Positions 2,347-55,558 of a DNA stretch of 64,000 nt are shown here, in pieces. Origin of the DNA: an uncultured Planctomycetales bacterium (GTDB lineage: Bacteria; Omnitrophota; Gorgyraeia; Gygaellales; Profunditerraquicolaceae). The notes under the pieces were generated by a model. That model saw only the letters and a list, made by a program, of their open reading frames with translations. It searched no databases and was not told the DNA's origin. The stretch covers positions 21,702-85,701 of the forward strand of contig CAZAPM010000006.1 of the NCBI GenBank assembly GCA_964487475.1. The letters run 5' to 3'. Position 1 is the stretch's first letter, and every line of letters begins with the position of its first letter. The position numbers and the translations under genes were made by a program.

Positions 2347-3600
2347 TCAATCCAAAACTTCGCCTTTCGCCTTCCGGTACGCCTCCAGGGCTGCCGGGAA
2401 CGGTTCCAGCACCCGGGAGACCACCCCCTGCAGGGCGCTGATGCACACCCCGTAGTTGGTCACCGCGACCCCTTCGGCGCGCGCCTTCTGGATGCGGGAG
2501 AGCATCTCCCGGCGGTTCATCATGCACCCGCCGCAGTGTACCACTAGCTTATACTCATGCAAAGTCTCGGGATAATCCCTCCCCGAGACCACATCCACCG
2601 CGATATCCGCGCCGATGTACTGGCGTATCCAGCGGGGGATCTTCACCCTGCCGATATCGTCCTCGATGGCGTGATGGCTGCACGACTCGGCGATGAGCAC
2701 CTTATCCCCGCGCGAAAGCCTCTCCAGCACCGCCGCCCCGCGGCTGGACTCGATAAGATCGCCTTTATACCGGGAAAACAGTGTGGAGAACGTAGTGCAG
2801 CGGATATCCCTGGGCGTATCGGCGACCACCTTAAGCACCACCTGCGAATCGCAGACCACGATATCGGGTTTGACGGAAAGGTTTTTTAACATCGCCCCGT
2901 ACTCCCGCTCCTTGACCACCAGGGCGGCTGCGTCGGAATCCAGCGCCTCGCGGATCACCTGCACCTGCGGCAGGATGAGCCTGCCCTTGGGCGCCTGCAG
3001 ATCGATGGGCACCACCATGACCGCGATCCCTCCGGGGGAAAGCAGGTCGGAGATCAGGGGAGGCGGATTGAGGAACTCATCCGGGCAGACCTCCAGAAGA
3101 AGGCGGGTAAGGGTACTCACGTAAAATTCCCGCTTCGCCGTATCGATGCTCGAGGAGACCATCATACGGGCCGATCCCGCCTTGACCGTCTCGAGGAACC
3201 CGGGGGAAGGATCCGCCGTATCGCATTTATTGACCACCGCGATCAGAGGCGCCTTGCGGCTGCGCGCTTCGGCGACCACCCCCTCCTCATACTCCCCCCA
3301 GATATTGGGCTCGCAGATAAGTAGGACCACTTCGCTGCGGGTGAAGACCTGTCTGGTTTTTTTGAGGCGCAGTGGCGAGAGCACCGAAGCATCGTCGAGC
3401 CCGGCGGTATCCAGGAACACCACCGGCCCCAAAGGCAGAAGCTCCATGACCTTCTCCACCACATCCGTGGTGGTGCCGGCGACCGGGGAAGTAATGGCCA
3501 CGTCCTGGCCTGCCACCAGGTTAAGGAAGCTCGATTTCCCGACGTTGGTGCGGCCGAATATGCCGATGTGCAGGCGAAGCGCCTTAGGCGTTTTTTCCAT
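2347..3600 (-). CDS. hydF: [FeFe]-hydrogenase maturase HydF (GTPase scaffold)
   Basis: N-terminal GTPase (GRTNVGKSS; DTAG; NKCD) and C-terminal CxH...HCxxC FeS motif (ESCSHH ... HCGGC). Start moved to the ATG at 3600 (MEKTPK). Confidence 0.85.
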   Translation of the reverse strand: MEKTPKALRLHIGIFGRTNVGKSSFLNLVAGQDVAITSPVAGTTTDVVEKVMELLPLGPVVFLDTAGLDDASVLSPLRLKKTRQVFTRSEVVLLICEPNIWGEYEEGVVAEARSRKAPLIAVVNKCDTADPSPGFLETVKAGSARMMVSSSIDTAKREFYVSTLTRLLLEVCPDEFLNPPPLISDLLSPGGIAVMVVPIDLQAPKGRLILPQVQVIREALDSDAAALVVKEREYGAMLKNLSVKPDIVVCDSQVVLKVVADTPRDIRCTTFSTLFSRYKGDLIESSRGAAVLERLSRGDKVLIAESCSHHAIEDDIGRVKIPRWIRQYIGADIAVDVVSGRDYPETLHEYKLVVHCGGCMMNRREMLSRIQKARAEGVAVTNYGVCISALQGVVSRVLEPFPAALEAYRKAKGEVLD

Positions 3601-4972
3601 GGTCGCGGAACCCCAGAGAGGTAAGGTTATGCGGATCGAGCACTCTGTCAACCAGTTCGGCGCCGAGCTTCTCGACGAGGAACGCACGCACCGAAAGCGC
3701 GCGCCCGCTTCGGCTGCGGTACTCCTGCGCCAGCGCAGTAGCTTTCTCGTATCCTATGTGCGGCAAAAACGCCGTGATCAGGGTGATGCTTTTATCAAAT
3801 GAGGCGCGGCAGGCATCGGGATCAGCGCTGATACCGGAAATATGTTCCGCGAATATCGGCGAGAGGGCAAGCAGAAGCTCCAGTGACTCGAGGATGCTCT
3901 GGGAAAGCAGCGGCATGAACTCGTTGATCTGGAATGTTGCCTTTGCGCAACAATCCGTGATAAGCGCGTCATTGGCAATCACTTTCATGCCTGTCTGTAT
4001 GGCGGCTTCCAGGATCACCGGGTTGACCTTGCCCGCCATGACGGATGAGCCGGCCTGCCTGGCGGGCAGCGCGATCTCGCCCAAAAGGGACATCATCCTG
4101 AGGTCGTTGCTGACCTTGATCAGGTTGACGGCATGGCTTTTCAGTATCCCGGAGACCTCGACAAAACAATCGGTGTTGGCGGTGGCATCCAGGGAATTCT
4201 CCCCGCGGGAAAGACCCATCCCGGTCCCTTCGCGCAGCTTCTCGATCACCAGGAAGATGTAACTGCGGGGCGCGGTCAATCCGGTGCCTACGGCCGTGCC
4301 TCCGATGTTGACCACGCGCAGCCGCTCCTCGCATTTGAAGGTGCGCCAGCGGTCGCGGGAGAAAGCCTCGGCAAAGGCGCCGAACTCGGCGCCCAGGGTG
4401 ATCGGCACCGCTTCCTGCATCTCCGTGCGCCCGATCTTGACCACCGCGGCGAACTCCTTCTCCTTTTTTTGGAACGCTCCCTGCACGGCAGCGATCTCCT
4501 GATTGAGCAGCCGGAACGCCTCGATACAGGCGATCTTTAACGCCGTCGGATACACATCATTGGTGGACTGATGCAGGTTGACGTCTTCCACGGGATGTAT
4601 CCCCGCATAATCGCCTTTGGCTTTACCGAGGATCTCCAGCGCGCGGTTGGCAAGCACCTCGTTGACGTTCATGTTGGTGGACGTGCCCGCCCCTCCCTGC
4701 AGGGCAGCGACGGGGAACTGGTCGGCATACGCTCCCTGCGCGACCTCGTCGCAGGCGCTGATGATCGCCCGGGACTTTACCGCATCGAGATACCCCAGCT
4801 CGGCGTTCGCCTGGGCGCAGGCTTTCTTGACATGCGCCAGCGCGCGGATAAGGCGCGGCTGCACTCCCGGGCCCGGGAAAGGGAAATTCTCCAAAGCCCG
4901 CTGCGTATGGATCCCCCAATACGCCTCCTGCGGCACCTGCTTCTCTCCCAGCATATCCTTCTCAACCCTCAT
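3584..4972 (-). CDS. aspA: Aspartate ammonia-lyase family protein (AspA-like) embedded in the hyd maturase operon
   Basis: Fumarase/aspartase signature GSSVMAGKVNP. N-terminus MRVEKDMLGEKQVPQEAYWGIHTQRALENF is aspartase-like. ATG at 4972 overlaps the hydE stop (ATGA). Confidence 0.8.
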   Translation of the reverse strand: MRVEKDMLGEKQVPQEAYWGIHTQRALENFPFPGPGVQPRLIRALAHVKKACAQANAELGYLDAVKSRAIISACDEVAQGAYADQFPVAALQGGAGTSTNMNVNEVLANRALEILGKAKGDYAGIHPVEDVNLHQSTNDVYPTALKIACIEAFRLLNQEIAAVQGAFQKKEKEFAAVVKIGRTEMQEAVPITLGAEFGAFAEAFSRDRWRTFKCEERLRVVNIGGTAVGTGLTAPRSYIFLVIEKLREGTGMGLSRGENSLDATANTDCFVEVSGILKSHAVNLIKVSNDLRMMSLLGEIALPARQAGSSVMAGKVNPVILEAAIQTGMKVIANDALITDCCAKATFQINEFMPLLSQSILESLELLLALSPIFAEHISGISADPDACRASFDKSITLITAFLPHIGYEKATALAQEYRSRSGRALSVRAFLVEKLGAELVDRVLDPHNLTSLGFRDHGKNA

Positions 4973-6075
4973 TTTAGGGACGCTCCTAAAGGGGACGCCC
5001 CTAAAGGGGACACCCCCGCAGAAGGCGGGGCACCGGCCGCTTCCTCTTGGGCCGGGTGCGCAGAAGGCGGGCGTTTTATCGCATCGCCTCTGGAATAGTC
5101 GATAAAGCGGCCGAGGCTCTTGGCCACCGCCTCCATACATCCGACACAGGCCCCCTCTTTCTCCTCGATACATTTCTTCCCGGGATAGATCTCGTATAAT
5201 TTCCGGTACTTGACCGGGGTAAAATTGGGCATGATCACGTTGGCGCCGGCTTTCAAACCTTCCAGGCGGTAATCCTTCTCCAGGCTCCCCAAAGCGGTAG
5301 TGGCCGGAAGATGCGGGGTTCTCACCGCGATACGGGTCACGGCAAGCGCCTTTAAGGTCAAGGCCACCTCCCCGTGCAGCTGTTCGGCCAAAGGCGTCTG
5401 GCGGTGAGGGATAAAAGGGCCGATGCCGATCATCTCGAAATCGAAACTCTTGTAGAAAAGGATATCCTCGGCGATGGTCTCTAAGGTCTGCCCTTTAAGG
5501 CCGATGATCCCGCCGGATCCGGTCTGGTATCCGAGCTTCTTGAGCGCGCGCAGGCACTGCACGCGGTGCTCGAAGCTCATCCCCGGATGCAGGGACTCGT
5601 AAAGCTTGCGGTTCGCGGTCTCGATCTTGAGCAGGTAACGGTCAGCGCCGGCATCCTTCCACAGCGCATACTCCGCTTCGGGACGCTCGCCCACGCAAAG
5701 GGTGACCGCCATATCCGCATGCCGGGACTTGATCTGCGCGACCAGCTCCGCCAGCCAGCGGGGATCGAGGGAATCCTCCTCCCCGGATTGCAGCACCACG
5801 GTCTTCATCCGGCACTCCGCGATCTTATCCACCGCGGCCAGGACCTCCTCGCTGCTCATACGGTAGCGCGGCAGCGCGGTATTATTCTTGTTGAGCCCGC
5901 AGTAATAGCAGGTGTTGCGGCAATGATTGGAGAATTCCACGATACCGCGCAGCAATATCCCCTCGCCCATGTACGTGCGGCGCACTTCGTCCGCATGCGA
6001 GAAGAGTTCCTGCAACGCGGCATCCTCCGTCCGCGAAAGCAATTCCACGATATCCCGGATATTAGACGTATTCAT
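4969..6075 (-). CDS. hydE: [FeFe]-hydrogenase maturase HydE (radical SAM)
   Basis: CRNTCYYCGL radical-SAM motif and BioB/HydE-like fold. The low-complexity C-terminal tail is encoded by the tandem repeat at 4976-5017. Confidence 0.85.
   Translation of the reverse strand: MNTSNIRDIVELLSRTEDAALQELFSHADEVRRTYMGEGILLRGIVEFSNHCRNTCYYCGLNKNNTALPRYRMSSEEVLAAVDKIAECRMKTVVLQSGEEDSLDPRWLAELVAQIKSRHADMAVTLCVGERPEAEYALWKDAGADRYLLKIETANRKLYESLHPGMSFEHRVQCLRALKKLGYQTGSGGIIGLKGQTLETIAEDILFYKSFDFEMIGIGPFIPHRQTPLAEQLHGEVALTLKALAVTRIAVRTPHLPATTALGSLEKDYRLEGLKAGANVIMPNFTPVKYRKLYEIYPGKKCIEEKEGACVGCMEAVAKSLGRFIDYSRGDAIKRPPSAHPAQEEAAGAPPSAGVSPLGASPLGASLK
4976..5017. repeat. Tandem 15-bp GC-rich repeat (GGGACGCTCCTAAAG x about 3), member of a short dispersed repeat family
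   Basis: Read directly. Encodes the hydE C-terminal tail (PLGASPLGASLK). Confidence 0.6.
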
Positions 6076-7447
6076 CGCGCGCCCCCTGAGCGATGTGCGC
6101 GAAGAACGCCTCCACGCACTGCTTATCCTCCGGCGGAAGTTTCGCCTTAAGCTCCTCGATCATCCGGTATCCGGCATCCCGGGTCTTCGGGGAGCCGAAA
6201 TCATCGAGGTACTCCCGCAGGGTGATCAGGGCATTCATGCTGCACTTACCCTTGATGGTGCCGGGCTTGGCCAGGTCCATGAACGCCTCTCCGGTGCGCT
6301 CCTTGCGGTAACAGGCGGCGCAAAAACTCGGGATGAACCCGCGCTCGATCAGGGAAGCCATCACCTCGTCGAGGGAACGGGTATCGCTTAAGGTGAACTG
6401 CTCGGCAGCGCCTTCGCGCTCGTCGTTGTACCCGCCGGGATTGGTACGGCTCTCCGCGCTGACCTGCGAGATGCCCAGGTTGAAAAGCTCGTCGCGCATA
6501 TCGGCGTTCTCGCGGGTGGAGAGGATGATGCCGGTGTAGGGGACCGCCAGGCGCAGCACCGCTACGATGCGCCGAAAATCCTCGTCGCGCACCTTATACT
6601 TCAGGTCCTTGACGAACTCCACCCCCTCCGCCGGCTCGATGCGAGGCACGGAGATAGTATGCGGGCCGACACGATGCTTCTTTTCCAGGGCCTCCACGTG
6701 CATGAGCATGGCCAGCGTATCGAATCTCCAGTCATACAGCCCGTAGAGTACGCCGATACCGATATCGTCGATCCCGGCGGCAAACGCCCGGTCGACCGCA
6801 TCGATGCGGTTATCCGGATCGGATTTCGGCCCCTTGGGGTGCACGTACCGGTACGTCTCTTCGTGATACGTCTCCTGGAATATCTGATAGGTGCCTATTC
6901 CCGCGGCTTTGAGCTTCCGGAATTCATCGACGGATAACGGCGCGGCGTTGACATTGACCCGCTTGATCTTATGCGGGCCGACGCTCACCTCGTAAATGGC
7001 TTTTACCGCATCCACATAATAATCGACAGGTGCGAGGCCTGGGATCCCCGCCTCGCCGCTGACCATCAGGATGCGCTTGTGGCCGCGCGTCAGGAGCCAG
7101 GAGACCTGCTCCTTGATCTCGGGGATGGAAAGCGCCCGGCGCCTGGTGGATGTATTGTCCGCCTTGAACGCACAGTAAAGGCAGGCATTGGCGCAAAGGT
7201 TGCTTATGTAAAGGGGCGCAAAAAGCACCACCCGCTTACCGTAGATGCGGTCCTTGACTTCGGCGGCAGCGGCAAATATCTCCCTGACCAACTCCGGGTC
7301 CCGGCAGCACAAAAGCGCGGCGGTTTCCTCGAGGGAAAGGCGGGTCAAGGTGCGACTCTTGGCCAGGATGGAGCGGATGCGCGCGGCAGTCGCCTGCGGC
7401 GCTTTGGAGATGATATCGAAGATCAACGCTTCGTCGATGTATCGCAT
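6062..7447 (-). CDS. hydG: [FeFe]-hydrogenase maturase HydG (radical SAM tyrosine lyase)
   Basis: CANACLYC radical-SAM motif, ThiH-like core, and C-terminal auxiliary-cluster motif CAACYRKERTGEAFMDLAKPGTIKGKC (CxxCx22C). Confidence 0.9.
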   Translation of the reverse strand: MRYIDEALIFDIISKAPQATAARIRSILAKSRTLTRLSLEETAALLCCRDPELVREIFAAAAEVKDRIYGKRVVLFAPLYISNLCANACLYCAFKADNTSTRRRALSIPEIKEQVSWLLTRGHKRILMVSGEAGIPGLAPVDYYVDAVKAIYEVSVGPHKIKRVNVNAAPLSVDEFRKLKAAGIGTYQIFQETYHEETYRYVHPKGPKSDPDNRIDAVDRAFAAGIDDIGIGVLYGLYDWRFDTLAMLMHVEALEKKHRVGPHTISVPRIEPAEGVEFVKDLKYKVRDEDFRRIVAVLRLAVPYTGIILSTRENADMRDELFNLGISQVSAESRTNPGGYNDEREGAAEQFTLSDTRSLDEVMASLIERGFIPSFCAACYRKERTGEAFMDLAKPGTIKGKCSMNALITLREYLDDFGSPKTRDAGYRMIEELKAKLPPEDKQCVEAFFAHIAQGARDEYV

Positions 7448-7459
7448 GTGAACCTTTCT

Positions 7460-7978
7460 TTACTCCCCGCACATCCAGGTACCGGAGGCGTCGCGGTGGC
7501 ACAGCTGCCACGCCGGAGCATCATACCAGAGCTGGAAGGTATCCTTCTGCGCATTGGGGATATAATGGAACCCGCTGTGCTGGAATGCAGGCGCGGGGAT
7601 GGATTTAAGATGGTCAGGGATCAGGTCCTGCAGGGTCTCGGGAAGCCGGCCCTTGGTGCTGCGGTACTCCTGAATGGCGGAGAACACCCTGTTCCCGTCT
7701 ATCTGGGAGAATTCATGCAGATGCTTCCTGCGCTCGAAGGCCATGCCCCGCACCATGAAGAACGCGCCCGCGGCCAGCGCCACCAGCAGTATCCCGGCGA
7801 TATTGCGCCGCACAAAGGAGGCGGCGATAAGCAGCAGAGAAATGATCCCGACACCCAGGAGAAAAAGCCCCATGAGCGCGGAGAAAATGAATCCGATCGC
7901 CATCACCGATGAGAAATAGAAAAATCCGACCGCGACCAGCACCAGCCCCAGGTACACCAGATACAGCCAATTGCCCAT
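7460..7978 (-). CDS. Uncharacterized membrane protein (3 TM helices plus soluble Cys-containing C-terminal domain) in the hyd maturase operon
   Basis: 172 aa ORF between the TM1266-like regulator gene and hydG, with short gaps on both sides. Hydrophobic N-terminal half. Confidence 0.5.
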   Translation of the reverse strand: MGNWLYLVYLGLVLVAVGFFYFSSVMAIGFIFSALMGLFLLGVGIISLLLIAASFVRRNIAGILLVALAAGAFFMVRGMAFERRKHLHEFSQIDGNRVFSAIQEYRSTKGRLPETLQDLIPDHLKSIPAPAFQHSGFHYIPNAQKDTFQLWYDAPAWQLCHRDASGTWMCGE

Positions 7979-8247: not shown

Positions 8248-8298
8248 AGGGACGGTTCTCCCTGGGGACACTTTTAACCGTAAATGAGAACCGTCCCT
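8248..8298 (-). promoter_or_regulatory. Stable 13-bp-stem hairpin in the leader 5 nt upstream of the RBS of the TM1266-like gene
   Basis: AGGGACGGTTCTC (8248-8260) pairs with GAGAACCGTCCCT (8286-8298). Its first arm resembles the GGGACGCTCCT repeat family. Confidence 0.4.
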
Positions 8299-8302
8299 AA
8301 CT

Positions 8303-8345
8303 AAACAAAAACGGTCTTACCGCAGCTGCCTGCAGTAAGACCGGG
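8303..8345 (-). terminator. Rho-independent terminator downstream of hydA (minus strand)
   Basis: Minus-strand reading CCGGTCTTACTGCAGGCAGCTGCGGTAAGACCG followed by TTTTTGTTT. Confidence 0.6.
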
Positions 8346-8437: not shown

Positions 8438-10186
8438 CTACTTCGCGTATACCGGACGGGCCTTATATTTCGTGTGCAGAAGCTTCTCGGATTTTTCTCC
8501 CAGAGGCTTGCCCAGGAATTCCTTGTACAGCTGCTGGATGTACGGATTCTCATGCGAACATCGCAGCTTGTGGTCCTTATCGTCCTGATAGATTCCCTTG
8601 GCCCGCAGGATGCGCAGCTCATCCGTCACACCGTACGGCTGGCCGCCTCCGCCTACACAGCCGCCCAGGCAGGCCATGACCTCCACGAAATGGAACGCCG
8701 GCTCCTTGCCCGCCTTCTCCGAATCGCGGATCATCTGCAGCACTTCCTCCACATGGCTTAACCCGTGGGCCACGGCAATGCGCAGCTTCTTGCCCGGGGC
8801 CACCTCGATCTCCGCGGTCTTGACGCCCTTTAAGCCCCGCACATCCTCCAGATCGATCCTGCCCAGATTCTTGCCGTTGACGAAATAGTACGCGGTACGG
8901 ACCGCCGCTTCCATGACGCCGCCCGTAGCCCCGAAAATGACGCCCGCTCCGGTGTAATCGCCGAGTATGGAATCCGGTTCCTCATCCGGCAAATTGACGA
9001 AGTCCACGCCCGCCTGCTTGATCATGCGCGCAAGTTCCCGGGTGGTCAGGGCTACGTCCACATCCTGCAGCCCGGAGGCATACATCTCTTCGGAACGGAT
9101 GATCTCGTTCTTCTTGGCGGTGCAGGGCATGATGGAGACCATGAAGATCTTCTTCGGGTCGATCCCCGTCTTTTGCGCATAATACGTCTTGGAAAGCACC
9201 CCCACCATCTCGTGCGGGGATTTGCAGGAGGAAAAATGATCGATCATATCCGGATGGAACTTCTCCATGAAATCCACCCACCCCGGACAGCAGGAAGTGA
9301 TCAGGGGGAGAGAACCCTTGCCGTGGGCATAGCGCTCCACGAACTCGCTGGCCTCCTCCATGATGGTCAGATCCGCGCCGAAGTTGGTATCGAACACCGC
9401 CTTGAAACCCAAACGCCGCAGCAACGCGTACAGCCGTTTGGTCATGTTGGTACCGATGGGAAGCCCGAACGCCTCGCCTATCGCCACACGGACCGCCGGA
9501 GCGATCTGCACCACGCAGTACTTCTCCGCATCCTGCAAGGATTCCCACACCTGCGCGGTCTGGTCCTGCTCGACGATCGCCCCCGTCGGGCAATGATTGG
9601 AACATTGGCCGCAGCGGATACAGGGCGAATCCGCAAGCTGGATGTCTCCGGCAGGCGAGATCCTGGTGCAGAAACCGCGCTCGAGGAATGAAAGCGCCCA
9701 GACGTTCTGCATCTCCTGACAGACCTTCACGCACCGGCCGCAGCGGATGCACTTCTGCGCATCCAGCACGATGGTGCGGGTGGAATCGTCCTTCGGCACA
9801 TCGGGAAGGAACTTATCGAAAGGCTCCTGCCGGATGGCGAAATCCGCCACCAGACGCTGCAGCTCGCAATCGTTATTGCGACCGCACTGCAGGCAATCGT
9901 TGGGATGATTGGAAAGGATGAGCTCGACCACGGTGCGGCGCACCGCCACGATCTCCGGGTCATGGGTGATGATATCCATCCCGTTCTCCAGCGGAGTCGA
10001 ACAGGCCCGCAGCATCTTCGGGGTGCCCTTGATCTTGACGATGCACAGCCCGCAGCCCGCTCCCGGAGGAAGGTCGGGATGCTTGCATAAAGTAGGGATA
10101 TTGATCTGCACCTTCTTGGCGGCGTCGAGGATCGTCGTTCCTTCCTTCACCTCGATGGGAAATCCGTTTATTTTCGCACTGATCAT
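8438..10186 (-). CDS. hydA: [FeFe]-hydrogenase catalytic subunit HydA (M3 type, without C-terminal thioredoxin-like domain)
   Basis: H-cluster motifs TSCCPGW, MPCTAKKNE and EVMACLGGCVGGGGQP. N-terminal 2Fe-2S and 4Fe-4S ferredoxin domains. Start at the ATG at 10186 with an AAGGAG RBS. Confidence 0.9.
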   Translation of the reverse strand: MISAKINGFPIEVKEGTTILDAAKKVQINIPTLCKHPDLPPGAGCGLCIVKIKGTPKMLRACSTPLENGMDIITHDPEIVAVRRTVVELILSNHPNDCLQCGRNNDCELQRLVADFAIRQEPFDKFLPDVPKDDSTRTIVLDAQKCIRCGRCVKVCQEMQNVWALSFLERGFCTRISPAGDIQLADSPCIRCGQCSNHCPTGAIVEQDQTAQVWESLQDAEKYCVVQIAPAVRVAIGEAFGLPIGTNMTKRLYALLRRLGFKAVFDTNFGADLTIMEEASEFVERYAHGKGSLPLITSCCPGWVDFMEKFHPDMIDHFSSCKSPHEMVGVLSKTYYAQKTGIDPKKIFMVSIMPCTAKKNEIIRSEEMYASGLQDVDVALTTRELARMIKQAGVDFVNLPDEEPDSILGDYTGAGVIFGATGGVMEAAVRTAYYFVNGKNLGRIDLEDVRGLKGVKTAEIEVAPGKKLRIAVAHGLSHVEEVLQMIRDSEKAGKEPAFHFVEVMACLGGCVGGGGQPYGVTDELRILRAKGIYQDDKDHKLRCSHENPYIQQLYKEFLGKPLGEKSEKLLHTKYKARPVYAK

Positions 10187-10188
10187 GG

Positions 10189-11931
10189 CTACTCCTTGGA
10201 GATGGCGCCGAATTTGCACACTTCAAAACACTTGCCGCATTTGACGCACTTATCCTGGTGCAGGGTAAAACCCTGCTCCTTGTCGCCGGTAATGGCGCCC
10301 ACGGGACAGTTGATCACGCAGACGCGGCAGCGCTTGCATTTATCCTGGATGATGTCGTAATTGATGAGATTCCGGCACTTATGCGAACGGCATTTCTTAT
10401 GCACGATATGGTCCATGAACTCCTGCTCGAAATACTTCAGGGTGGAGACCACCGGATTGGCGGCGGTCTGCCCGAGCGCGCACAGGGATGCTTTCTGCAT
10501 AGCCAGGGCGATCTGCTTCAGTTTGGCGATGTCTGAAAGCAGCCCTTTTCCCTCGCTGATCCGGTTCAGGATCCCCAGCATCTGGTAGCCGCCGATGCGG
10601 CAGGGCACGCACTTTCCGCAGGACTCGTCCACGCAGAACCCTAAATAGAATTTGGCGATATCCACCATGCAGTCGTCCTCGTCCATGACGATCATACCGC
10701 CGGATCCCATGATGGAGCCGAGTTTCGAGAGATTGTCGTAATCGATGGGCGTATCCAGGTACTCCTTGGGGATGACGCCACCGGAAGGCCCGCCGGTCTG
10801 CACCGCCTTGATGGCCTTGCCGGAATACATGCCGCCTCCGATATCGAAGACGATCTCGCGCAGGGTGGTGCCCATGGGCACTTCCACCAGCCCGGAGTTC
10901 TTGACCTTGCCCGTGAGCGCAAAGACCTTGGTGCCCTTGGATTTCTCGGTGCCGATGGCGCCGTACCAGGCCCCGCCCCGGACCATGATCTCGGGGATGT
11001 TGGCGAGCGTCTCCACGTTATTGATCGCGGTCGGTTTCTCCCAGAGTCCGGACACCGACGGATACGGAGGACGGGGACGCGGCGTGCCGCGTTTCCCCTC
11101 GATGGAAGCGATCAGCGCGGTTTCCTCTCCGCAGACGAACGCGCCCGCTCCCAGGCGGATATCCAGGTCGTAGCTGAAATCGCTCCCCAGGATATTCTTT
11201 CCCAGCAGCCCCAGCTCATAGGCCTGGGCAATGGCCTTTTCCACGCGCTTGACCGCCAGAGGATACTCCGCGCGGATATAGAAGAAACCCTTTGAGGCTC
11301 CGATGGTATAGCCGGCGATGATCATGCCTTCCAGCACCGAATGGGGGTCCCCTTCCAGCACTCCGCGGTCCATGTACGCCCCCGGGTCCCCCTCGTCGGC
11401 GTTACAGATCATGTATTTCTGATCTCCCTTGGATTCGCGGGTCAGCTTCCACTTCATCCAGGTCGGGAATCCCGCGCCGCCCCGGCCGCGCAGCCCGCTC
11501 TTTTTCATCTCCTCGATCACCGCTTCCGGTGTCATCTCCGTCAAAACCTTCTTCAGGCCCTGATACCCTCCCTGGCCGATATATTCCTCGATCGACTCCG
11601 GATCGACCTTGCCGCAGTTGCGCAGCACGATGCGCATCTGCTTGGGCTCCTGGGTGAACGCCAGGTCCGAAAGCACCTTGCCGTCCTTTAAGGTCTCGTC
11701 CACGATCCGGTTGATATCGGACTCGCGCACGTTGGTATAGACGATGCCGTCGGGCACGATCTTGATCACCACCCCCTGGCTGTAGATGCCGATATCCGCC
11801 ACCCGCACCACCTGCACGGACTCCTCGAGCTTATCCTCCCGGATGCGGTTGGAGAAAAGCGTGTAGAAATCGTGGGTGGAGTCCTGGGTCAGGCCTTCCG
11901 AATCCTTCAACAGTACGATCTTCTTATCCAT
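10189..11931 (-). CDS. hydB: NADH-binding subunit HydB (NuoF-like, C-terminal 2x[4Fe-4S])
   Basis: GGAGFPTW and NADH/FMN-site motifs, soluble-ligand-binding and NuoF 4Fe-4S region, C-terminal CxxCxxCxxxCP x2. The N-terminal about 100 aa contains no cysteines. Confidence 0.85.
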   Translation of the reverse strand: MDKKIVLLKDSEGLTQDSTHDFYTLFSNRIREDKLEESVQVVRVADIGIYSQGVVIKIVPDGIVYTNVRESDINRIVDETLKDGKVLSDLAFTQEPKQMRIVLRNCGKVDPESIEEYIGQGGYQGLKKVLTEMTPEAVIEEMKKSGLRGRGGAGFPTWMKWKLTRESKGDQKYMICNADEGDPGAYMDRGVLEGDPHSVLEGMIIAGYTIGASKGFFYIRAEYPLAVKRVEKAIAQAYELGLLGKNILGSDFSYDLDIRLGAGAFVCGEETALIASIEGKRGTPRPRPPYPSVSGLWEKPTAINNVETLANIPEIMVRGGAWYGAIGTEKSKGTKVFALTGKVKNSGLVEVPMGTTLREIVFDIGGGMYSGKAIKAVQTGGPSGGVIPKEYLDTPIDYDNLSKLGSIMGSGGMIVMDEDDCMVDIAKFYLGFCVDESCGKCVPCRIGGYQMLGILNRISEGKGLLSDIAKLKQIALAMQKASLCALGQTAANPVVSTLKYFEQEFMDHIVHKKCRSHKCRNLINYDIIQDKCKRCRVCVINCPVGAITGDKEQGFTLHQDKCVKCGKCFEVCKFGAISKE

Positions 11932-11949
11932 GCGGCTTCACCTTATCTA

Positions 11950-12300
11950 TTATTTGCTGCGCAGTTCGTAGATGCTATCCTTAACCAGGACGTTGGAGCA
12001 GACATGCTTCTCCATGATCTTGGCCGCGATCTCCTTGTTCACCTTCCCGTAGAGCACCGCCGGAAGGCCCTCGGTCTTGACCTCCACCATCGGCTCGGCA
12101 TAACACATCCCCTGGCAGCCGCAGCGCTTGATCTCGATGGCGCAATTGCGCTTCTTGGCTTCCTCCTGCAGGGTGGCGAACACCACATCCGCGCCCGCGG
12201 CGATCCCGCAGGTGCTCATCCCCACTTTGATCCACGCCGACGGTTCGGCGGAAAGGTCCTTGCGCATCGCTTCCAGGCCGTTCTTATCGAGCTTCGCCAT
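11950..12300 (-). CDS. Thioredoxin-like [2Fe-2S] ferredoxin (stand-alone NuoE-like domain)
   Basis: 116 aa with a CGIAAG ... CxxxC ... C cysteine pattern. Sits between hydC and hydB. Confidence 0.55.
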   Translation of the reverse strand: MAKLDKNGLEAMRKDLSAEPSAWIKVGMSTCGIAAGADVVFATLQEEAKKRNCAIEIKRCGCQGMCYAEPMVEVKTEGLPAVLYGKVNKEIAAKIMEKHVCSNVLVKDSIYELRSK

Positions 12301-12305
12301 ATCCC

Positions 12306-12788
12306 TTAACCCTCTTTCTTGCTGTTGCCGTACTGCGAAAGGATATCCATCACTTCGCTTTTCTTGACCTTGCCGTAGACCTTATCGTCGATCATGATGA
12401 CCGGAGAAAGTCCGCAGCATCCCAGGCAGCGCACCACGTCGAGCTGGAAAAGCTTGTCCTTGGTGCTCCCCCCCTCCTCCACGTTCAGGATGGTCTTGAT
12501 CTCGTTGAGGATGACCGGGGCTCCCTTGAGGTAGCAGGCGGTCCCCATGCACACCGCGATCTTATGCTTGCCCGGAGCCTCCAGCTTGAAAAAATTATAG
12601 AAGGTGATGACCTCGTAGATGCGCGCCAGCGGCACGCCGAGTATCTTGGAGAGCTCCAGCGCTGCCGGCCGGGGCACATACCCGTAATGATTCTGCAGCT
12701 CGTGCAGGATCATGATCAGGTTGCCCTGCTTGTCCTTCCACTTGCTGGCCAGTAAGGCGATCTCTTGCTTTACTTCCTGCGGATCCAT
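12306..12788 (-). CDS. hydC: NuoE-like 24 kDa subunit HydC
   Basis: Thioredoxin-like 2Fe-2S motifs (CMGTACYLKG ... CLGCCGLSP). Start moved to the internal ATG (MDPQEVKQ) behind an AGGAG RBS. The TTG-initiated extension in the track was rejected. Confidence 0.75.
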   Translation of the reverse strand: MDPQEVKQEIALLASKWKDKQGNLIMILHELQNHYGYVPRPAALELSKILGVPLARIYEVITFYNFFKLEAPGKHKIAVCMGTACYLKGAPVILNEIKTILNVEEGGSTKDKLFQLDVVRCLGCCGLSPVIMIDDKVYGKVKKSEVMDILSQYGNSKKEG

Positions 12789-12829
12789 AGGTTTCGCTCC
12801 TGTAAAAATTTCGGGGGACTTCGTTACTT

Positions 12830-12847
12830 TGTGAAAACTATCACAAA
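12830..12847 (-). promoter_or_regulatory. Rex operator (TTGTGAA-N4-ATCACAA) in the hydC-fdx-hydB-hydA leader
   Basis: TTGTGAAAACTATCACAA read directly, with one mismatch to TTGTGAAnnnnTTCACAA. Lies just downstream of the -10. Confidence 0.55.
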
Positions 12848-12877
12848 TCGGCGATAAAAAAAATAATAGTGCAGTTA

Positions 12878-12906
12878 TACTACCTTTCTTCCGGTTCCCT
12901 GTCAAG
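12878..12906 (-). promoter_or_regulatory. Sigma70-type promoter of the hydCBA operon
   Basis: Minus-strand TTGACA - 17 bp - TAGTAT. Confidence 0.5.
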
Positions 12907-15557: not shown

Positions 15558-16301
15558 TCACCTCACGAATAATAAGGTCGCCGCAGCCGCGGCCAGACAG
15601 TAATACCCGAAAAGATAGAACACCTTCCGCTGCATGATCCTCTTCAACAGGATCAGCGCGCACCACCCCGAAAAAAAGCTCGCCACGAAACCCGCGGCCA
15701 GCTGCCAGGGACTGGCGGAGATCGCCGCGCCGATATCTTTGGCGTCCAGCAGCGCCGCTCCCAGGATCGCAGGGATGGAGGCGATGAAAGAGAACGCAAA
15801 GGCGGCTTTCCTTTCCGCGCCGCGGAACAAAAGCGAAGCGATGGTAAACCCGGAACGGGAGATGCTGGGAACGACCGCCAGCCCCTGCGCAACGCCCATC
15901 ACCGCAGCGTCGGTACGGGTAAGTTTCTCCCTGGTGCCGGCCATATAGCCCCTGGTCAGAAGCAGCACGATCCCGGATACCGCCCAGCCGGCGGCCAGCC
16001 ACCATGCGCTGTCATAAATGCTGAGGAAGAATTTTTTACCGCCCACGCCGATCACGCCGGTGATCACCGTCACCAGGCCGATCAGCCCCCACATGCGCGC
16101 ATCCCGCAGCGCCTTCCTGATATCGGGAAAGAAATATATCCCCACTGCCAGCAGGGTGCCTAAGTGCAGCGTGACATCCAGCGCCACATCCATGCTGCTG
16201 ACCCCTAAAAGCTTCTGGAACACTTTCAGGTGGCCGTGGCTGCTTACGGGCAGGAATTCGGTGATCCCCTGCACGACCCCCAGAACGATGTACGCGACCA
16301 T
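15558..16301 (-). CDS. uppP: Undecaprenyl-diphosphatase
   Basis: BacA motifs (QGITEFLPVSSHGH; SRSG). Confidence 0.85.
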   Translation of the reverse strand: MVAYIVLGVVQGITEFLPVSSHGHLKVFQKLLGVSSMDVALDVTLHLGTLLAVGIYFFPDIRKALRDARMWGLIGLVTVITGVIGVGGKKFFLSIYDSAWWLAAGWAVSGIVLLLTRGYMAGTREKLTRTDAAVMGVAQGLAVVPSISRSGFTIASLLFRGAERKAAFAFSFIASIPAILGAALLDAKDIGAAISASPWQLAAGFVASFFSGWCALILLKRIMQRKVFYLFGYYCLAAAAATLLFVR

Positions 16302-16307
16302 GGCAGC

Positions 16308-16934
16308 TTACCGGTGCTCCTGGATGAAAGTTTCCATGTCCTTAGGCAGAGGCGCTTTTGCCGCGACCTCCCCGCCCGTCACAGGATGAGGGAAACTTAT
16401 TTTATATGCATGCAGCATAAGGGATTTCGTCTTGAACGTAAAGTCCCTGCGGAACGCGAACTTGGTGTCCCCCAGCACCGGATGCCCGATCTGGCGGAAA
16501 TGGATCCTGATCTGATTGGTCCTGCCGGTTTCCGGCATTATCTCTACGATATCAAAACCACCGCGTTTTTCAATAACTTTATAGTGGGTAACGGACTTGC
16601 GGCCTTCGATGGGACTGACGACCGTCCCCCGCCGCTCCTGAAGGTTCCCGCTGGTCAGCGCCCAATAGGTCTTCTTCACCAGGCGGGCATGGAAACGCTC
16701 CATCATCCTCTGCTGGGTAGCCTTGCCCTTGGCGAACACGATCGCGCCGGAAGTGTCCCGGTCCAGCCGGTGGCAGGGGTGCAGCCGGTACGTAACCCCC
16801 TTTTCCCTGGCATCGTCGTTAAGGATGCTTTCCAGGGTGCGGGATTCTTTAGCCGGGGTGGGGATGGTCAGCAGGCCGCGCGGCTTGTCGACTATGCAAA
16901 GATGCTCATCCTCGAAAAGCACGGGAATGTTCAT
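16308..16934 (-). CDS. RluA-family pseudouridine synthase
   Basis: HRLD catalytic motif and TSG. Confidence 0.8.
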   Translation of the reverse strand: MNIPVLFEDEHLCIVDKPRGLLTIPTPAKESRTLESILNDDAREKGVTYRLHPCHRLDRDTSGAIVFAKGKATQQRMMERFHARLVKKTYWALTSGNLQERRGTVVSPIEGRKSVTHYKVIEKRGGFDIVEIMPETGRTNQIRIHFRQIGHPVLGDTKFAFRRDFTFKTKSLMLHAYKISFPHPVTGGEVAAKAPLPKDMETFIQEHR

Positions 16935-17855
16935 TTATACGATCTCGAGCATCCGGTCAATGGCGCGCCTGGCCCTAAGGCGGATGTCGGCAGGGACCTT
17001 CACCTCCTCCTTCATCTCCTCCAGAGCCCAGAGCACCTTCTCCTGGGTGGTGCGCTTCATGTTCGGGCACACCGCCGCTTCGGAAGCCGGGTAAAACTCC
17101 TTATCGGGAAAATCCTTCTTCAGCCGGTAGATCAGCCCTGCCTCCGTGCCGATGATGAATTCTTTATCGCGGGAGTCCTTGGCGAACTGCCACATCCCGC
17201 TGGTGGAAAGCACCTCATCCGCCAGCGCCACCACTCCGGAAAGGCATTCGGGGTGCACCAGTACTTTCGCTTTGGGGTGAAAATGTTTCTCCCGGAGGAT
17301 GTCCTCGGGCAGGATCTTAACGTGCGTGGGGCAGAACCCCTTCCAGGTGATGAGCTTGCGGCCGCTTTTCCTGGAAGCATACTCCCCCAGGTATTTATCC
17401 GGCACGAAGATGATCTCCTTGGCGTCCTTCAGGTAATTGATGACCTTCACGGCATTGGTGGAGGTGCAGCAGTAATCCAGTTCGGCTTTGACCTCGGCGG
17501 AGGTATTAACGTATCCGACGGTGACCGCCTGGGGATGCCTGGCCTTAAGCTCGCGCAGGTCCTGCGGGGTGATCATATTGGCCATGGGACAGCCGGCGTG
17601 GATATCCGGGACGAGCACGGTCTTCTCCGGAGAGAGGATCTTGGCGGTCTCGGCCATGAAATGCACTCCGCAGAACACGATGACGTCGGCCTTGGTTTTG
17701 GCAGCGGCCCGGGAAAGCTCCAGGGAATCCCCGCGCAGATCGGCGATATCCTGCACTTCGGGAAGCTGGTAGTTATGCGCCAGGATCACCGCATTGCGCT
17801 GCTTCTTGAGCTCCTTGATCCTCTTGGGGATATCGTCTTTAATCAGGGGTCCCAT
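16935..17855 (-). CDS. nadA: Quinolinate synthase
   Basis: NadA pattern with the ILAHNYQ motif. Confidence 0.9.
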   Translation of the reverse strand: MGPLIKDDIPKRIKELKKQRNAVILAHNYQLPEVQDIADLRGDSLELSRAAAKTKADVIVFCGVHFMAETAKILSPEKTVLVPDIHAGCPMANMITPQDLRELKARHPQAVTVGYVNTSAEVKAELDYCCTSTNAVKVINYLKDAKEIIFVPDKYLGEYASRKSGRKLITWKGFCPTHVKILPEDILREKHFHPKAKVLVHPECLSGVVALADEVLSTSGMWQFAKDSRDKEFIIGTEAGLIYRLKKDFPDKEFYPASEAAVCPNMKRTTQEKVLWALEEMKEEVKVPADIRLRARRAIDRMLEIV

Positions 17856-17862
17856 ATCTTAC

Positions 17863-18930
17863 CTATATTACCTTTTCTATGATACCGCCCCCTACCACTA
17901 TGTCCTGGCGGTAGAAGACTGCGGATTGACCGGGAGTAACGGCAAACTGCGGGGTTTTGAATATGACCTTGAGCGAACCTTTCCCAGGGACAACCTCGGC
18001 AGGTGCTTGGGGGTGATTATACCGTATCTTGACATCCAGGGCAACCTTCTTTTTGAACGGCTCCCCGGAAAAATGCACCTGCGAGACCAGGCACTCCCTG
18101 GAACTCGCCTGCTCCCGCGTGCCGACGACCACCGTATGAGAGGCGGCATCCAGGGAAACCACGTATGCGGGTTTTCCCAGCGCCACTCCCAGGCCCTCAC
18201 GCTGGCCGATGGTATAAAAAGCCACCCCCTGGTGCCGGCCGACGATTCTGCCCTCCACCGTCCGGATCGGCCCGGGTGCCGCCTTGTACCCCCTGCGGCG
18301 GAGGAATGAGCGGTAGTCATTGTCCGGAAGGAAACATATCTCCTGGCTGTCGGGCTTCTCCGCCACCGGCAGATGCAGGCTTCTCGCCAGCTCCCGGATC
18401 CGGGATTTGGTGAATGCGCCGATAGGGAACATCAGCCGGGAAAGCTCCTTCTGGCCCGCCCGGTAGATAAAATAGGACTGGTCCTTGCGCGGGTCTTTTC
18501 CCCGGGCCAGGAAACGGTTTGTGGTGCGGCGCACGATGCGGGCGTAATGGCCGGTCGCCAGGTGCGTGGCGCCGATCGCCTGCGCCTTGGCCAGCAGGGC
18601 CTCGAACTTGACGAACTGGTTGCAGCGCACGCAGGGATTGGGAGTGCGGCCCAGGGAGTATTCGGAGAGGAAATCCGCGATCACCTTGTCGTTTAAGTGC
18701 CGCTGCATGTTCAGCACATAGTGCCTGATCCCCAGGGCGGAGGCGACCCGGCGCGCATCCTCGATCGCCTGCACTCCGCAGCAGCTCGGATGCGCCCCCT
18801 CTCCATCGGAAAGATTAAAGCACATGGTCAGTCCGACCACTTCGAATTTTTTTTGCACCAGGAGCGCCGCGGCCACGGAGGAATCCACCCCTCCGCTCAT
18901 GGCCACCGCCACTCGGCGGGGTCTTTTCAT
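17863..18930 (-). CDS. mnmA: tRNA-specific 2-thiouridylase
   Basis: SGGVDSS PP-loop, NPCVRCN, and catalytic QEICF. Confidence 0.85.
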   Translation of the reverse strand: MKRPRRVAVAMSGGVDSSVAAALLVQKKFEVVGLTMCFNLSDGEGAHPSCCGVQAIEDARRVASALGIRHYVLNMQRHLNDKVIADFLSEYSLGRTPNPCVRCNQFVKFEALLAKAQAIGATHLATGHYARIVRRTTNRFLARGKDPRKDQSYFIYRAGQKELSRLMFPIGAFTKSRIRELARSLHLPVAEKPDSQEICFLPDNDYRSFLRRRGYKAAPGPIRTVEGRIVGRHQGVAFYTIGQREGLGVALGKPAYVVSLDAASHTVVVGTREQASSRECLVSQVHFSGEPFKKKVALDVKIRYNHPQAPAEVVPGKGSLKVIFKTPQFAVTPGQSAVFYRQDIVVGGGIIEKVI

Positions 18931-32845: not shown

Positions 32846-32853
32846 GCCGGTGC

Positions 32854-33075
32854 TCAGACCGCCATCACTTCCTTGATCTCGGGGACTTCCTTCTTGAGGA
32901 TACGTTCGATCCCCATCTTCAGGGTCATCTGGCTCATCGGGCAGCAACCGCAGGCACCGGTGAGCTTGAGCTTTACCACGCCGTCTGCCGTCACGTCCAC
33001 CAGCTCCACGTTGCCTCCGTCGGCCTGCAGCATGGGCCTGACCTGTTCTAACGCCTTCAGCACTTTTTCTTTCAT
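32854..33075 (-). CDS. NifU-like (Nfu) Fe-S assembly domain protein
   Basis: 73 aa with CGCCPMS. Start at the internal ATG at 33075. Confidence 0.7.
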
Positions 33076-48098: not shown

Positions 48099-48323
48099 TC
48101 AACCTCCGTTTGGTTTTTTTACCGCGTCTTCGCCGATACATTCCTTCGCCGCCTTGCACCACTGGGTGCAGGAAGGCAATGCTTCCTTCATCACCCGCGC
48201 GCCGCACTCCGGGCAGCGCACGCTTACTTCATCCGAGAACACTTCCACGGCATACCCGCACCCTGAGCACGGCACCGTGGCCGCTTTCAACTTCCGGCGG
48301 TCCTGTCCCGGACATTTACCCAT
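48099..48323 (-). CDS. Small zinc-ribbon protein
   Basis: 74 aa with CSGCG ... CPECG. Confidence 0.4.
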   Translation of the reverse strand: MGKCPGQDRRKLKAATVPCSGCGYAVEVFSDEVSVRCPECGARVMKEALPSCTQWCKAAKECIGEDAVKKPNGG

Positions 48324-53349: not shown

Positions 53350-53361
53350 CCCGATCCCTCC

Positions 53362-55540: not shown

Positions 55541-55558
55541 CGGACACGCCTCTGCATA

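Follow-up and report, generated by a model that had tools for sequence, protein, structure and literature searches.

A 15-bp GC-rich DNA repeat recurs in opposite orientations at the end of hydE and in a loop of a ferredoxin-like gene

Introduction

The hydE gene of an uncultured anaerobe, whose nearest protein relatives come mostly from Omnitrophota MAGs, ends in a run of short GC-rich repeats, and closely similar letters return inside a distant gene for a ferredoxin-like protein. Do the two genes share a piece of DNA, or did each protein acquire its own low-complexity segment? If DNA is shared, what kind of element is it, and does its presence within reading frames call for selection? A sequence-only reading of the window, that is, the whole 64-kb stretch of DNA analysed here, had proposed REP/MITE-like elements that tolerate, or are selected for, in-frame insertion into coding sequence. 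In this study, we sought to determine what is repeated at these loci and to weigh the explanations for its origin.

Results

The repeat is one of DNA sequence

The unit is 15 bp long and GC-rich (GGGACRCYCCTRAAG) and occurs at two loci about 44 kb apart within the window. In these 64 kb the 24-mer GGGACGCTCCTRAAGGGGACRCCC has three matches (4977, 4992 and, on the minus strand, 48691) against none in 100 shuffles, and its copies in the two genes are identical at 24 of 24 and 23 of 24 positions, on opposite strands. The 10-mer GGGACRCYCC is found five times, against 1.07 expected, each time within one of the two loci. In a PWM scan, no more than four instances scored higher than any shuffled sequence (42, 40.6, 40.5 and 20; null maximum 13), and these four again make up two loci. 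The shared core measures roughly 25-40 nt, beyond which similarity of the flanks is not significant (shuffle test, p = 0.28). Since the copies lie in opposite orientations and are translated into different peptides (GASPLGASPL at the HydE locus, KGTLLKGTP at the ferredoxin locus), what is repeated is the DNA and not the peptide; the two sites are a DNA-level repeat rather than two low-complexity peptides.

Each unit combines a G4-N3-C4 mini-palindrome with a TRAA spacer. Between the halves of GGGACGCTCC-TAAA-GGGGACACCC, only 5 of 9 positions can pair, and the sole self-pairing is the 4-bp G4/C4 match. The tetramer CGTC is internal, within GGAG-CGTC-CC, and is no terminal unpaired tag; TTAG stands before three copies (4974, 48717 and, on the minus strand, 8300). 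With a length of exactly five codons, the unit is free of stops in two of the three frames of either strand, and thus in four of six overall. A simple slippage VNTR was considered and set aside: it fits the tandem array described below but not the inverted distant copy, and local slippage alone is ruled out because the motif recurs, inverted, 44 kb away.

Exact protein look-up led to three same-species contigs of 1-3 kb each (L010, L026 and L029), and in two independent ones the repeats are unchanged (L010, from SRR12447100, and L026, from JGI 3300076594). Because two independent assemblies reproduce the repeats, an assembly artefact is ruled out.

A tandem array at the hydE-aspA junction

The features of the first locus are as follows.

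4969-6075, minus strand: hydE open reading frame, 368 aa, with the radical-SAM HydE core at residues 7-331 and a tail at residues 333-368
4977-5016, plus strand: tandem array of GGGACRCYCCTRAAG, 2.7 copies (4977-4991, 4992-5006 and 5007-5016), from Tandem Repeats Finder, motif search and translation
3584-4972, minus strand: aspartate ammonia-lyase-like gene (aspA), directly downstream of hydE (NF008909, 552.5 bits, residues 1-456)
4972-5078, minus strand: lineage-specific extra DNA, 102 nt from TAAAA to TAAAA, between HydE ..SRGDAIK and the aspartase-like ATG
5017-5070, minus strand: second, unrelated repeat structure in the HydE tail, from sequence and fold; not shared with the ferredoxin locus (shuffle test, p = 0.28)

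The roughly three tandem units seen earlier at the C-terminal end of HydE are borne out by Tandem Repeats Finder (period 15, 2.7 copies, 92% matches, score 66, consensus GGGACGCCCCTAAAG), and they lie in a continuous minus-strand reading frame. On that coding strand the array reads GVSPLGASPLGASLK*, residues 354-368, which form the last 15 residues of the 36-residue tail. The protein matches TIGR03956 at 357.7 bits, but the family model stops at residue 331, and HydE chains in the PDB align to residues 11-323, short of the tail. AlphaFold gives pLDDT values below 50 for residues 335-368, and the tail is accordingly predicted to be disordered. The remainder of the tail contains the second structure, in which a 12-nt direct repeat, CGCAGAAGGCGG, at 5017-5028 and 5059-5070 (42 nt apart) flanks a hairpin of CACCGGCC (5031-5038) and GGCCGGGTG (5050-5058).

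The hydE stop codon TGA (4971-4969) overlaps the ATG (4972-4970) of the downstream gene as ATGA, and the repeat supplies an AGGAG 11 nt 5' of that ATG. In the closest relatives (L024 and L025, with HydE 77% and 73% identical), HydE ends 6-8 residues past SRGD, as expected if orthologues lack the segment, and hydE joins the aspartase-like gene directly. This lineage thus has about 100 additional nucleotides here. The insert is flanked by TAAAA (5078-5074 and 4976-4972; the recurrence of this 5-mer is not significant), and its removal in silico restores GAT GCG ATA AAA TGA, which reads ..DAIK* and keeps the ATGA overlap. Together, the flanks and the restored reading are suggestive of an insertion event with GATGCGATAAAATGAGG as the predicted empty site. 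The insert happens to keep the HydE frame open. The idea of an in-frame insertion within coding sequence thus holds in that the repeat is translated in both reading frames, but this copy sits at a stop/start junction and is more aptly called a gene-junction insertion than an internal one. Nor is the whole ~100-nt insert one element shared with the ferredoxin locus, because no similarity extends past the core (p = 0.28).

A head-to-head pair in a ferredoxin/AF_0155 loop

The second locus comprises the following features.

48316-49203, minus strand: gene whose product joins a 2x[4Fe-4S] ferredoxin domain to a PF27217 (AF_0155) domain, as in fused homologues
48682-48752, no strand assigned: 71-nt imperfect palindrome, from inverted-repeat detection and RNA and DNA folds
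48691-48729, minus strand: codons for GASLKGTLLKGTP, residues 159-171, in the variable loop of the ferredoxin/AF_0155 protein
48679-48687, minus (coding) strand: proximal copy of the 9-nt direct repeat AGCGCGGAG, which brackets the palindrome
48772-48780, minus strand: distal copy of AGCGCGGAG, 93 nt from the proximal copy

The second copy with its perfect hairpin was confirmed and proved larger than claimed, as part of a palindrome whose arms (48682-48715 and 48719-48752, 34 nt each, 3 nt apart) are 79% complementary. Two units lie on the minus strand (48685-48699 and 48700-48714) and one on the plus strand (48720-48734), with a degenerate one after it (48735-48746); at the centre lies a perfect 25-nt hairpin, GGAGCGTCCC-TTTTA-GGGACGCTCC. 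The 71 nt fold at -58.2 kcal/mol as RNA (z = -6.6) and at -30.6 kcal/mol as DNA (z = -5.35), whereas the loop DNA of the nearest homologue is unstructured (z = +1.24).

The gene has an Rrf2 regulator upstream and hcp downstream, an Rrf2-ferredoxin order also found in L030, and the true start of its product is likely the methionine of MAKRKII at 49185. All homologues are fused (274-305 aa). Between the GCPG motif and the WPVQL strand lies a loop that is hypervariable among the homologues, with aligned lengths of 26-56 residues; one homologue (P0109) has a tandem repeat of its own there. AlphaFold assigns pLDDT values below 50 to residues 130-148 and 150-174, and the repeat-bearing loop is predicted to be disordered. 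In this gene the repeat also contributes AAGGGGA, 5 nt 5' of an in-frame ATG.

The AGCGCGGAG pair is possibly a target-site duplication, or else chance: bracketing of this kind has a chance probability of about 0.03, and 65 such 9-nt pairs occur in the 64 kb. A simple insertion model misfits this locus, because deletion of the 93 nt leaves almost no loop, unlike any homologue.

No third locus in the window, and few candidates outside it

The sequence-only reading had also placed a diverged copy at 8248-8270. This stretch supplies one arm of a different inverted repeat (13 nt, perfect; 8248-8260 and 8286-8298), which is intergenic and lies between the hydA terminator and a TM1266-like gene. It has only AGGGACG and GGGGACAC in common with the motif, gives no blastn-short match to it at E <= 1 and, with a rank of about 10 among 2131 windows, does not stand out from the best of the background. 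We dropped it as a copy.

In collections without the source genome, a scan with the DNA pattern returned 9 stretches from genomes and 13 from metagenomes; viral contigs gave no match. These totals are near the ~9 chance matches that we estimate for a database of that size with uniform composition, the matches were picked by the search pattern itself, and several fall in conserved coding sequence (the MurA N-terminus is one case). Among the others, metagenome contig L016 has two identical intergenic elements of 107 bp whose inverted ends consist of the two-unit motif; in Planctomycetia MAGs (CAZWMG01, CAZBMI01) the motif is a 30-nt intergenic repeat near contig ends, and in one such MAG a related motif stands right after a stop codon, between co-oriented genes. 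These occurrences are suggestive of a wider kind, judged by sequence likeness. The genes beside the foreign copies (aldolase, tgt, amidase, AsmA-like and FecR-like) are functionally unrelated, and a regulon was rejected on that ground.

The unit is absent from the corresponding loci of relatives (L024, L025, L027 and L028; 21 kb and 12.5 kb of two relatives). A search of all open translations of the repeat, joined end to end, against 5.8 billion proteins returned nothing at E <= 10, a search that had no power, as the known positives P0121 and P0001 were missed as well. Rfam recognized no RNA family in the window, and no terminator or promoter signal was found at the repeats. Pfam was searched with 30 of the 61 reading frames called in the window, about half, and none of them matched a transposase or RAYT. 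A literature search for the motif strings found only unrelated primer sequences.

Discussion

Copies of one sequence were placed, as DNA and in both orientations, at two permissive sites 44 kb apart. The stop/start junction of hydE and aspA gained about 100 nt with the HydE frame open through the insert to the original ATGA, so that HydE acquired a 36-residue disordered tail. In the hypervariable ferredoxin/AF_0155 loop, two head-to-head copies form the long hairpin and encode 13 loop residues. We consider it probable, at roughly 60%, that the copies represent a short, lineage-specific interspersed DNA repeat built on a 15-bp module and REP/RPE-like in behaviour. On this model, the hydE array would then have grown by one unit through replication slippage. 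A trans-acting transposase and repair-mediated template switching are candidate copying agents, and translation of the repeat would be a tolerated by-product rather than a function. Copies in tails and loops would survive because the unit is five codons long, leaves four of six frames open and encodes flexible peptides rich in Gly, Ala, Ser, Pro, Lys, Thr and Leu. With such a unit, special selection for tolerance is not needed, and the suggestion that in-frame insertion is selected for is not supported: chance and the purging of disruptive insertions are enough.

Several observations weigh against an interspersed family. With only two loci in 64 kb, the family is an extrapolation; the scanned window reading frames include neither transposase nor RAYT; the flanking direct repeats are unequal (5 and 9 nt) and each is weak; the motif is missing from 21 kb and 12.5 kb of two relatives; a single copy has no 6-9 bp stem; and the foreign match totals are close to chance.

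Among known systems, intragenic REPs of the GTAG/CGTC-tagged kind are short and GC-rich and occur singly, in groups or, frequently, as head-to-head or tail-to-tail dimers that form larger hairpins (Di Nocera et al. 2013, PMC3733652). They are dispersed at high copy number, with an associated RAYT, a Y1 transposase, in the genome (PMC3733652). Their units of 20-40 bp are imperfect palindromes, each with a 3-5 nt loop on a stem of about 6-9 bp (range 5-13); most lie near the 3' ends of ORFs, sometimes providing stop codons, and a minority lie wholly within ORFs, where dimers encode 20-30 residues (PMC3733652). They have been reported in the PVC superphylum, in Opitutus terrae and Rhodopirellula baltica (PMC3733652). 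The head-to-head pair in its 71-nt hairpin (z = -6.6) resembles them. However, the window unit is 15 bp long and forms true head-to-tail tandem arrays; its CGTC is internal, whereas the REP tag is terminal and unpaired; and it has only G4-N3-C4 mini-palindromes where the defining REP stem would be. With no stem of 6-9 bp in a single copy, the motif falls outside the canonical REPs. RPEs are palindromic selfish repeats found in frame in unrelated metabolic genes (Ogata et al. 2000, via PMC10969869 and PMC3733652), translated and tolerated at structurally permissive positions, about 100-150 bp long, each family yielding a conserved peptide in one orientation (PMC10969869, PMC3733652). The window repeats likewise lie in continuous ORFs, outside conserved domains and at pLDDT below 50, but with a core of about 25-40 nt, both orientations and different peptides, in an unrelated organism where sequence similarity to RPEs is not expected. 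MITEs, too, can fuse in frame with host ORFs (PMC10969869). They measure 70-300 bp overall, with terminal inverted repeats of 15-30 bp around a non-coding core; in the window, small size, inverted ends and possible flanking direct repeats are MITE-like. In contrast to MITEs, the arms at the ferredoxin locus are only 3 nt apart, with no internal segment; the hydE copy has one end only; and the direct repeats are unequal (5 vs 9 nt), where MITE target-site duplications have a fixed length. MITE architecture (inverted ends, 107 bp, two identical copies) occurs in the foreign contig L016, and no parent IS is known for the window repeat. As to the REP/MITE-like label, the head-to-head dimer hairpin is REP-like, the single motif lacks the REP stem, and no clear MITE layout of TIR plus TSD was seen in the window.

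The junction of hydE and aspA also behaves like the MIRUs of mycobacteria, with an open frame and overlapping stop and start. As Supply and co-workers are said to have described in 1997, MIRUs are tandem units of 46-101 bp between operon genes, in direct repeats only; their frame is reportedly open, their stop and start overlap the flanking genes, and translational coupling is kept. We know of no report of MIRU head-to-head hairpins inside genes.

Could the likeness come from one event instead? A stretch of about 40 nt might have been copied once between the loci, by ectopic gene conversion or template switching in repair, and then remodelled locally, through slippage of 15 bp at hydE and through an inverted duplication that produced the ferredoxin palindrome. 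We think this unlikely, yet worth serious weight: it agrees with two loci in the window, a likeness confined to the ~40-nt core (flanks p = 0.28), another local duplication in the HydE tail (12-nt repeat 42 nt apart), relatives' loci free of the motif and no transposase among the scanned ORFs. It leaves unexplained, however, why the same two-unit motif makes up the repeated ends of small elements in other genomes; a 64-kb sample would be unlikely to include both copies of a genome that had only two, and both orientations, with tandem and head-to-head layouts, are typical of REP-type families (PMC3733652). We regard as distinctly improbable a functional cis element under selection, be it a protein-binding site (the 25-nt palindrome is operator-like) or an mRNA hairpin and ribosome-binding module that would adjust stability or translational coupling. 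An ATG adjoins both sites on the coding strand, the hairpin is very stable, the overlap of HydE stop and aspA start was kept despite the insert, and in a Planctomycetia MAG the motif directly follows a stop codon between co-oriented genes. Yet the orientation relative to transcription differs between the two loci, no Rfam match and no terminator- or promoter-like signal was found, the hydE-aspA junction of relatives works without the repeat, the unrelated genes next to foreign copies speak against a regulon, and no cognate regulator was identified in this analysis. Ordinary low-complexity linkers of independent origin would account for peptides rich in Gly, Ala, Ser, Pro and Lys, as in many linkers, and for a ferredoxin loop that varies in all homologues. 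But a 24-mer matched at 24/24 and 23/24 positions on opposite strands, with different translations, makes convergence impossible, and recovery of the sequence from two independent assemblies counters an artefact; linkers and artefact alike are scarcely credible and effectively refuted.

On the preferred reading of a lineage-specific interspersed repeat, a bolder extension is a long shot: GGGACRYTCC-YAAA-GGGGACA might mark an undescribed family of tiny mobile or repair-propagated modules in uncultured PVC-related lineages. The lineages in question are those of the window's organism, the Planctomycetia MAGs and contig L016. If true, the design of the module (five codons, four of six open frames, SD-like AGGAG/AAGGGG and a TAAAATG end) would spare translation and coupling, and the module could settle at stop/start junctions and in loops as a ready-made donor of linkers and tails.

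The case is real but fairly ordinary: small bacterial repeats in genes were known before, the principle is already set by intragenic REPs and RPEs, and no new question is opened. For annotation, the last 36 residues of HydE and 13 loop residues of the ferredoxin/AF_0155 protein are repeat-derived and not domain features, and both segments are probably functionless. Altogether, this study provides an example of a repeat whose arrival at an ATGA stop/start overlap lengthened a protein, and adds a further case, from a poorly sampled anaerobic lineage, of small GC-rich repeats absorbed into coding tails and loops.

Results

The 15-bp unit lies at the end of hydE, within a maturase operon, and again inside a gene for a ferredoxin/AF_0155 protein. 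The relevant features, with a nearby intergenic element, are as follows.

2347-3687, minus strand: hydF
3584-4972, minus strand: aspartate ammonia-lyase-like (aspartase-like) gene (NF008909, 552 bits, full length)
4969-6075, minus strand: hydE (368 aa)
6062-7447, minus strand: hydG
4977-5016: hydE array, reading GGGACGCTCCTAAAG GGGACGCCCCTAAAG GGGACACCCC on the plus strand
5017-5070: second repeat structure of the HydE tail, CGCAGAAGGCGG twice, 42 nt (14 codons) apart, around the hairpin CACCGGCC/GGCCGGGTG
8231: Shine-Dalgarno/ATG of the TM1266-like regulator gene
8248-8260 and 8286-8298: perfect 13-nt inverted repeat AGGGACGGTTCTC/GAGAACCGTCCCT, 25-nt loop, intergenic
48316-49203, minus strand: ferredoxin/AF_0155 ORF, a 2x[4Fe-4S] ferredoxin domain fused to PF27217/AF_0155
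48682-48715 and 48719-48752: arms (79% complementary) of an imperfect 71-nt palindrome

Tandem Repeats Finder resolved the hydE array into 2.7 copies of period 15 with 92% matches, bearing out the tandem units that the sequence-only reading had placed at the end of HydE, while the hairpin copy it had seen in the ferredoxin-like gene proved larger than claimed, spanning the whole palindrome at 48682-48752. With up to three mismatches accepted, the 24-mer GGGACGCTCCTRAAGGGGACRCCC occurs three times in the window (4977 and 4992 on the plus strand, 48691 on the minus) and in none of 100 shuffles, and a 10-mer core, confined to the two loci, was observed five times against 1.07 expected. A position-weight-matrix scan of the window returned four instances, scoring 42, 40.6, 40.5 and 20; the next site scored 9.8 and the maximum in shuffled sequence was 13. 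The centre of the palindrome, GGAGCGTCCC-TTTTA-GGGACGCTCC, is perfect, and the whole forms the strongest local hairpin of the 64 kb (-58.2 kcal/mol, z = -6.6 as RNA; -30.6 kcal/mol, z = -5.35 as DNA). An assembly artefact is ruled out as the source of the repeats, since both loci are unchanged in independent assemblies of the same species, namely Logan contig L010 (SRR12447100; 99.8% identity over 1078 nt) and JGI contig L026, where the tail differs by one SNP.

Three sites had been proposed, and the two at 4977-5016 and 48682-48752 stand. The supposed diverged copy at 8248-8270 was rejected: it has in common with the motif only AGGGACG and GGGGACAC, gave no match to it by blastn-short at E <= 1, and came out about 10th when 2131 windows were scanned with gaps allowed, on par with the top background windows. 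It belongs to the separate inverted repeat at 8248-8298, which has the strong intrinsic terminator that follows hydA (8312-8343) on one side and the TM1266-like gene's Shine-Dalgarno sequence on the other. This inverted repeat could be a 5'-leader structure of the maturase operon; it has no Rfam match.

The hydE product matches the HydE equivalog TIGR03956 (a model of 340 positions) over residues 7-331, and Thermotoga HydE structures align to residues 11-323. Residues 333-368 (AIKRPPSAHPAQEEAAGAPPSAGVSPLGASPLGASLK) lie beyond the family match, the repeat making up the final 15, and the stop codon TGA overlaps the ATG (4972-4970) of the aspartase-like gene. The nearest HydE relatives among 5.8 billion proteins, P0122 (77% identical) and P0123 (73%), do lack this segment, terminating 6-8 residues past the conserved SRGD. 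On the contigs of these two, L024 and L025, which share the hydG-hydE-aspartase order, the end of hydE and the start of the aspartase gene are separated by an 8-nt gap or overlap by 17 nt; the junction in the window therefore carries about 100 nt of additional DNA. This DNA is flanked by TAAAA at 5078-5074 and 4976-4972, with a spacing of 102 nt (34 codons); taking out one TAAAA and the 97 nt between leaves GAT GCG ATA AAA TGA (..DAIK-stop) with the ATGA overlap kept, a plausible empty site, the TAAAA 5-mer alone being without statistical significance. The 12-nt direct repeat at 5017-5070, read in the protein as PPSA...PPSA, is unrelated to the 15-bp unit. Outside a core of about 40 nt the similarity of the two loci is not significant (p = 0.28), and the hydE insert is thus composite rather than a single long element common to both.

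The aspartase-like gene is itself a full-length member of the hydG-hydE-hydF operon, joined to hydE by the ATGA overlap. It also lies between hydE and hydF in L024 and L025, the two closest relatives; on two other relatives' contigs (L027, L028) hydF directly follows hydE, with no such gene between.

The ferredoxin/AF_0155 gene is flanked by an Rrf2 regulator gene and hcp. All 120 listed homologues share the fusion except P0001, a truncated same-species fragment. Their GCPG motif is invariant, but the loop that links it to the WPVQL strand cannot be aligned and ranges from 26 to 56 residues. The loop in the window has 36 residues, with the repeat encoding GASLKGTLLKGTP (residues 159-171). A 9-nt direct repeat, AGCGCGGAG, flanks the palindrome at a spacing of 93 nt; such pairs occur about once per kb in the window, and the chance of one bracketing the palindrome is about 0.03. 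A clean insertion at this locus is not established, because removal of the 93 nt would leave an almost loopless protein unlike all homologues. In P0002, the nearest available homologue (64% identical, same Rrf2-ferredoxin synteny), the loop DNA is unstructured (z = +1.24). In P0109, a homologue from another lineage, the loop holds its own triple tandem repeat of 10 residues each, GKEGMIGG[KD]R; repeat expansion thus seems to recur at this position.

The two loci are oriented oppositely relative to the coding strand. HydE is encoded by the reverse complement of the unit, giving GASPL; in the ferredoxin gene a single reverse unit precedes two forward ones, giving GAS-LK-GTLLKGTP. The repeated entity is therefore DNA, not peptide, and the alternative that these are ordinary low-complexity linkers is refuted by the same opposite reading. 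In AlphaFold2 models, pLDDT falls below 50 at HydE residues 335-368 (mean for the protein, 87.6) and at residues 130-148 and 150-174 of the ferredoxin-like protein, whose C-terminal domain is confident; disorder is thus predicted for both of the segments that the repeat encodes, and they fall outside the conserved domains. It had also been suggested that in-frame insertion is selected for. At both loci two of the three frames per strand are free of stops, and five codons fit the unit exactly. The prior chance of both copies being open is about 4/9, and a frame-breaking copy within the ferredoxin gene would have been lost. The suggested selection is unsupported, and these data do not require it.

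Of the 61 ORFs called in the window, 30 (about half) were compared with Pfam, and no transposase was found among them; the 15-bp unit was not found in the relatives' loci (2-21 kb). Two sizeable minus-strand ORFs (32051-32947, 33092-33895) lack a Pfam match at E <= 1e-5, as do the plus-strand ORFs 16230-17882, 53335-54126 and 54914-56059, and these last three may be wrong-strand shadow ORFs. The window also holds two paralogous NuoF-like/[FeFe]-hydrogenase gene clusters (8438-12905 and 20112-25749, about 13.7 kb apart), with stretches of 60-170 nt at 74-78% identity.

Pattern scans covered genome and metagenome collections that lack the window's source genome. Matches to the pattern GGGACRCYCCTRAAGGGGAC numbered 9 across 596 Gb of genomic sequence and 13 across the metagenomes, about as many as chance would give by our own estimate; some are conserved coding sequence, such as the MurA N-terminus. 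A protein search with all open repeat translations returned nothing and carries no weight, known positives having been missed too. Two sets of matches fall in repeats.

L001 6911-6940; L002 88-120 and 292-320; L007 305-335: GC-rich 30-nt GGGGACACTCCTAAAGGGGACRCCCCTGAG in AT-rich (41-44% GC) Planctomycetia MAGs, recurring in intergenic DNA near contig ends
L016 (metagenome contig) 7499-7605 and 9486-9592: intergenic elements of 107 bp each, 100% identical, 2 kb apart

One copy of GGGGACACTCCTAAAGGGGACRCCCCTGAG starts at the stop codon of the gene that precedes tgt; in another case, upstream of a class II aldolase gene, two inverted copies are separated by about 200 bp. The ends of the L016 elements are inverted copies of the same two-unit motif, GGGACGCTCCTAAAGGGGACA/TGTCCCTTTTGGGAACGTCCCC. 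Genes beside the copies in both sets are functionally unrelated. These matches, preselected by the query itself and at most putative homologues, suggest that small repeats of other lineages also end in the motif. The L016 elements enclose a promoter-like TTGATA-17-TAGTAT and lie upstream of AsmA-like and FecR-like genes; in Streptomyces sp. NBC_00400 (L005 3622-3680, 72% GC), tandem GGGGACACCCC-type units (CCCCCTGAAAGGGACACCCCTGAAGGGGACACCCCCTGAGGGGGCACCCCCTAA) stand right after a stop codon.

Discussion

GTAG- and CGTC-tagged REPs occur in more than 80 species, the PVC superphylum included, often as head-to-head dimers and mainly beside the 3' ends of ORFs; in some cases they supply stop codons, and a minority are intra-ORF, with dimers accounting for 20-30 residues of the protein (Di Nocera et al., PMC3733652). 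For in-frame insertion the classic example is that of the Rickettsia RPEs (PMC10969869). The window element, proposed to be REP/MITE-like, resembles both REPs and RPEs in its behaviour, but a single copy lacks a 6-9 bp stem and so falls outside REPs as structurally defined; no clear MITE architecture was found in the window. Its size and the lack of a conserved peptide also set it apart from RPEs. Rfam gave no match for the repeat, and no terminator- or promoter-like signals were found at its copies.

Altogether, a REP/RPE-type DNA repeat is incorporated into one ORF at a gene junction and into another within a variable loop. We favor, with a probability of roughly 0.6, a joint mechanism in which the repeat would have been copied at the DNA level into permissive sites, altered by local slippage and passively translated as disordered peptide.
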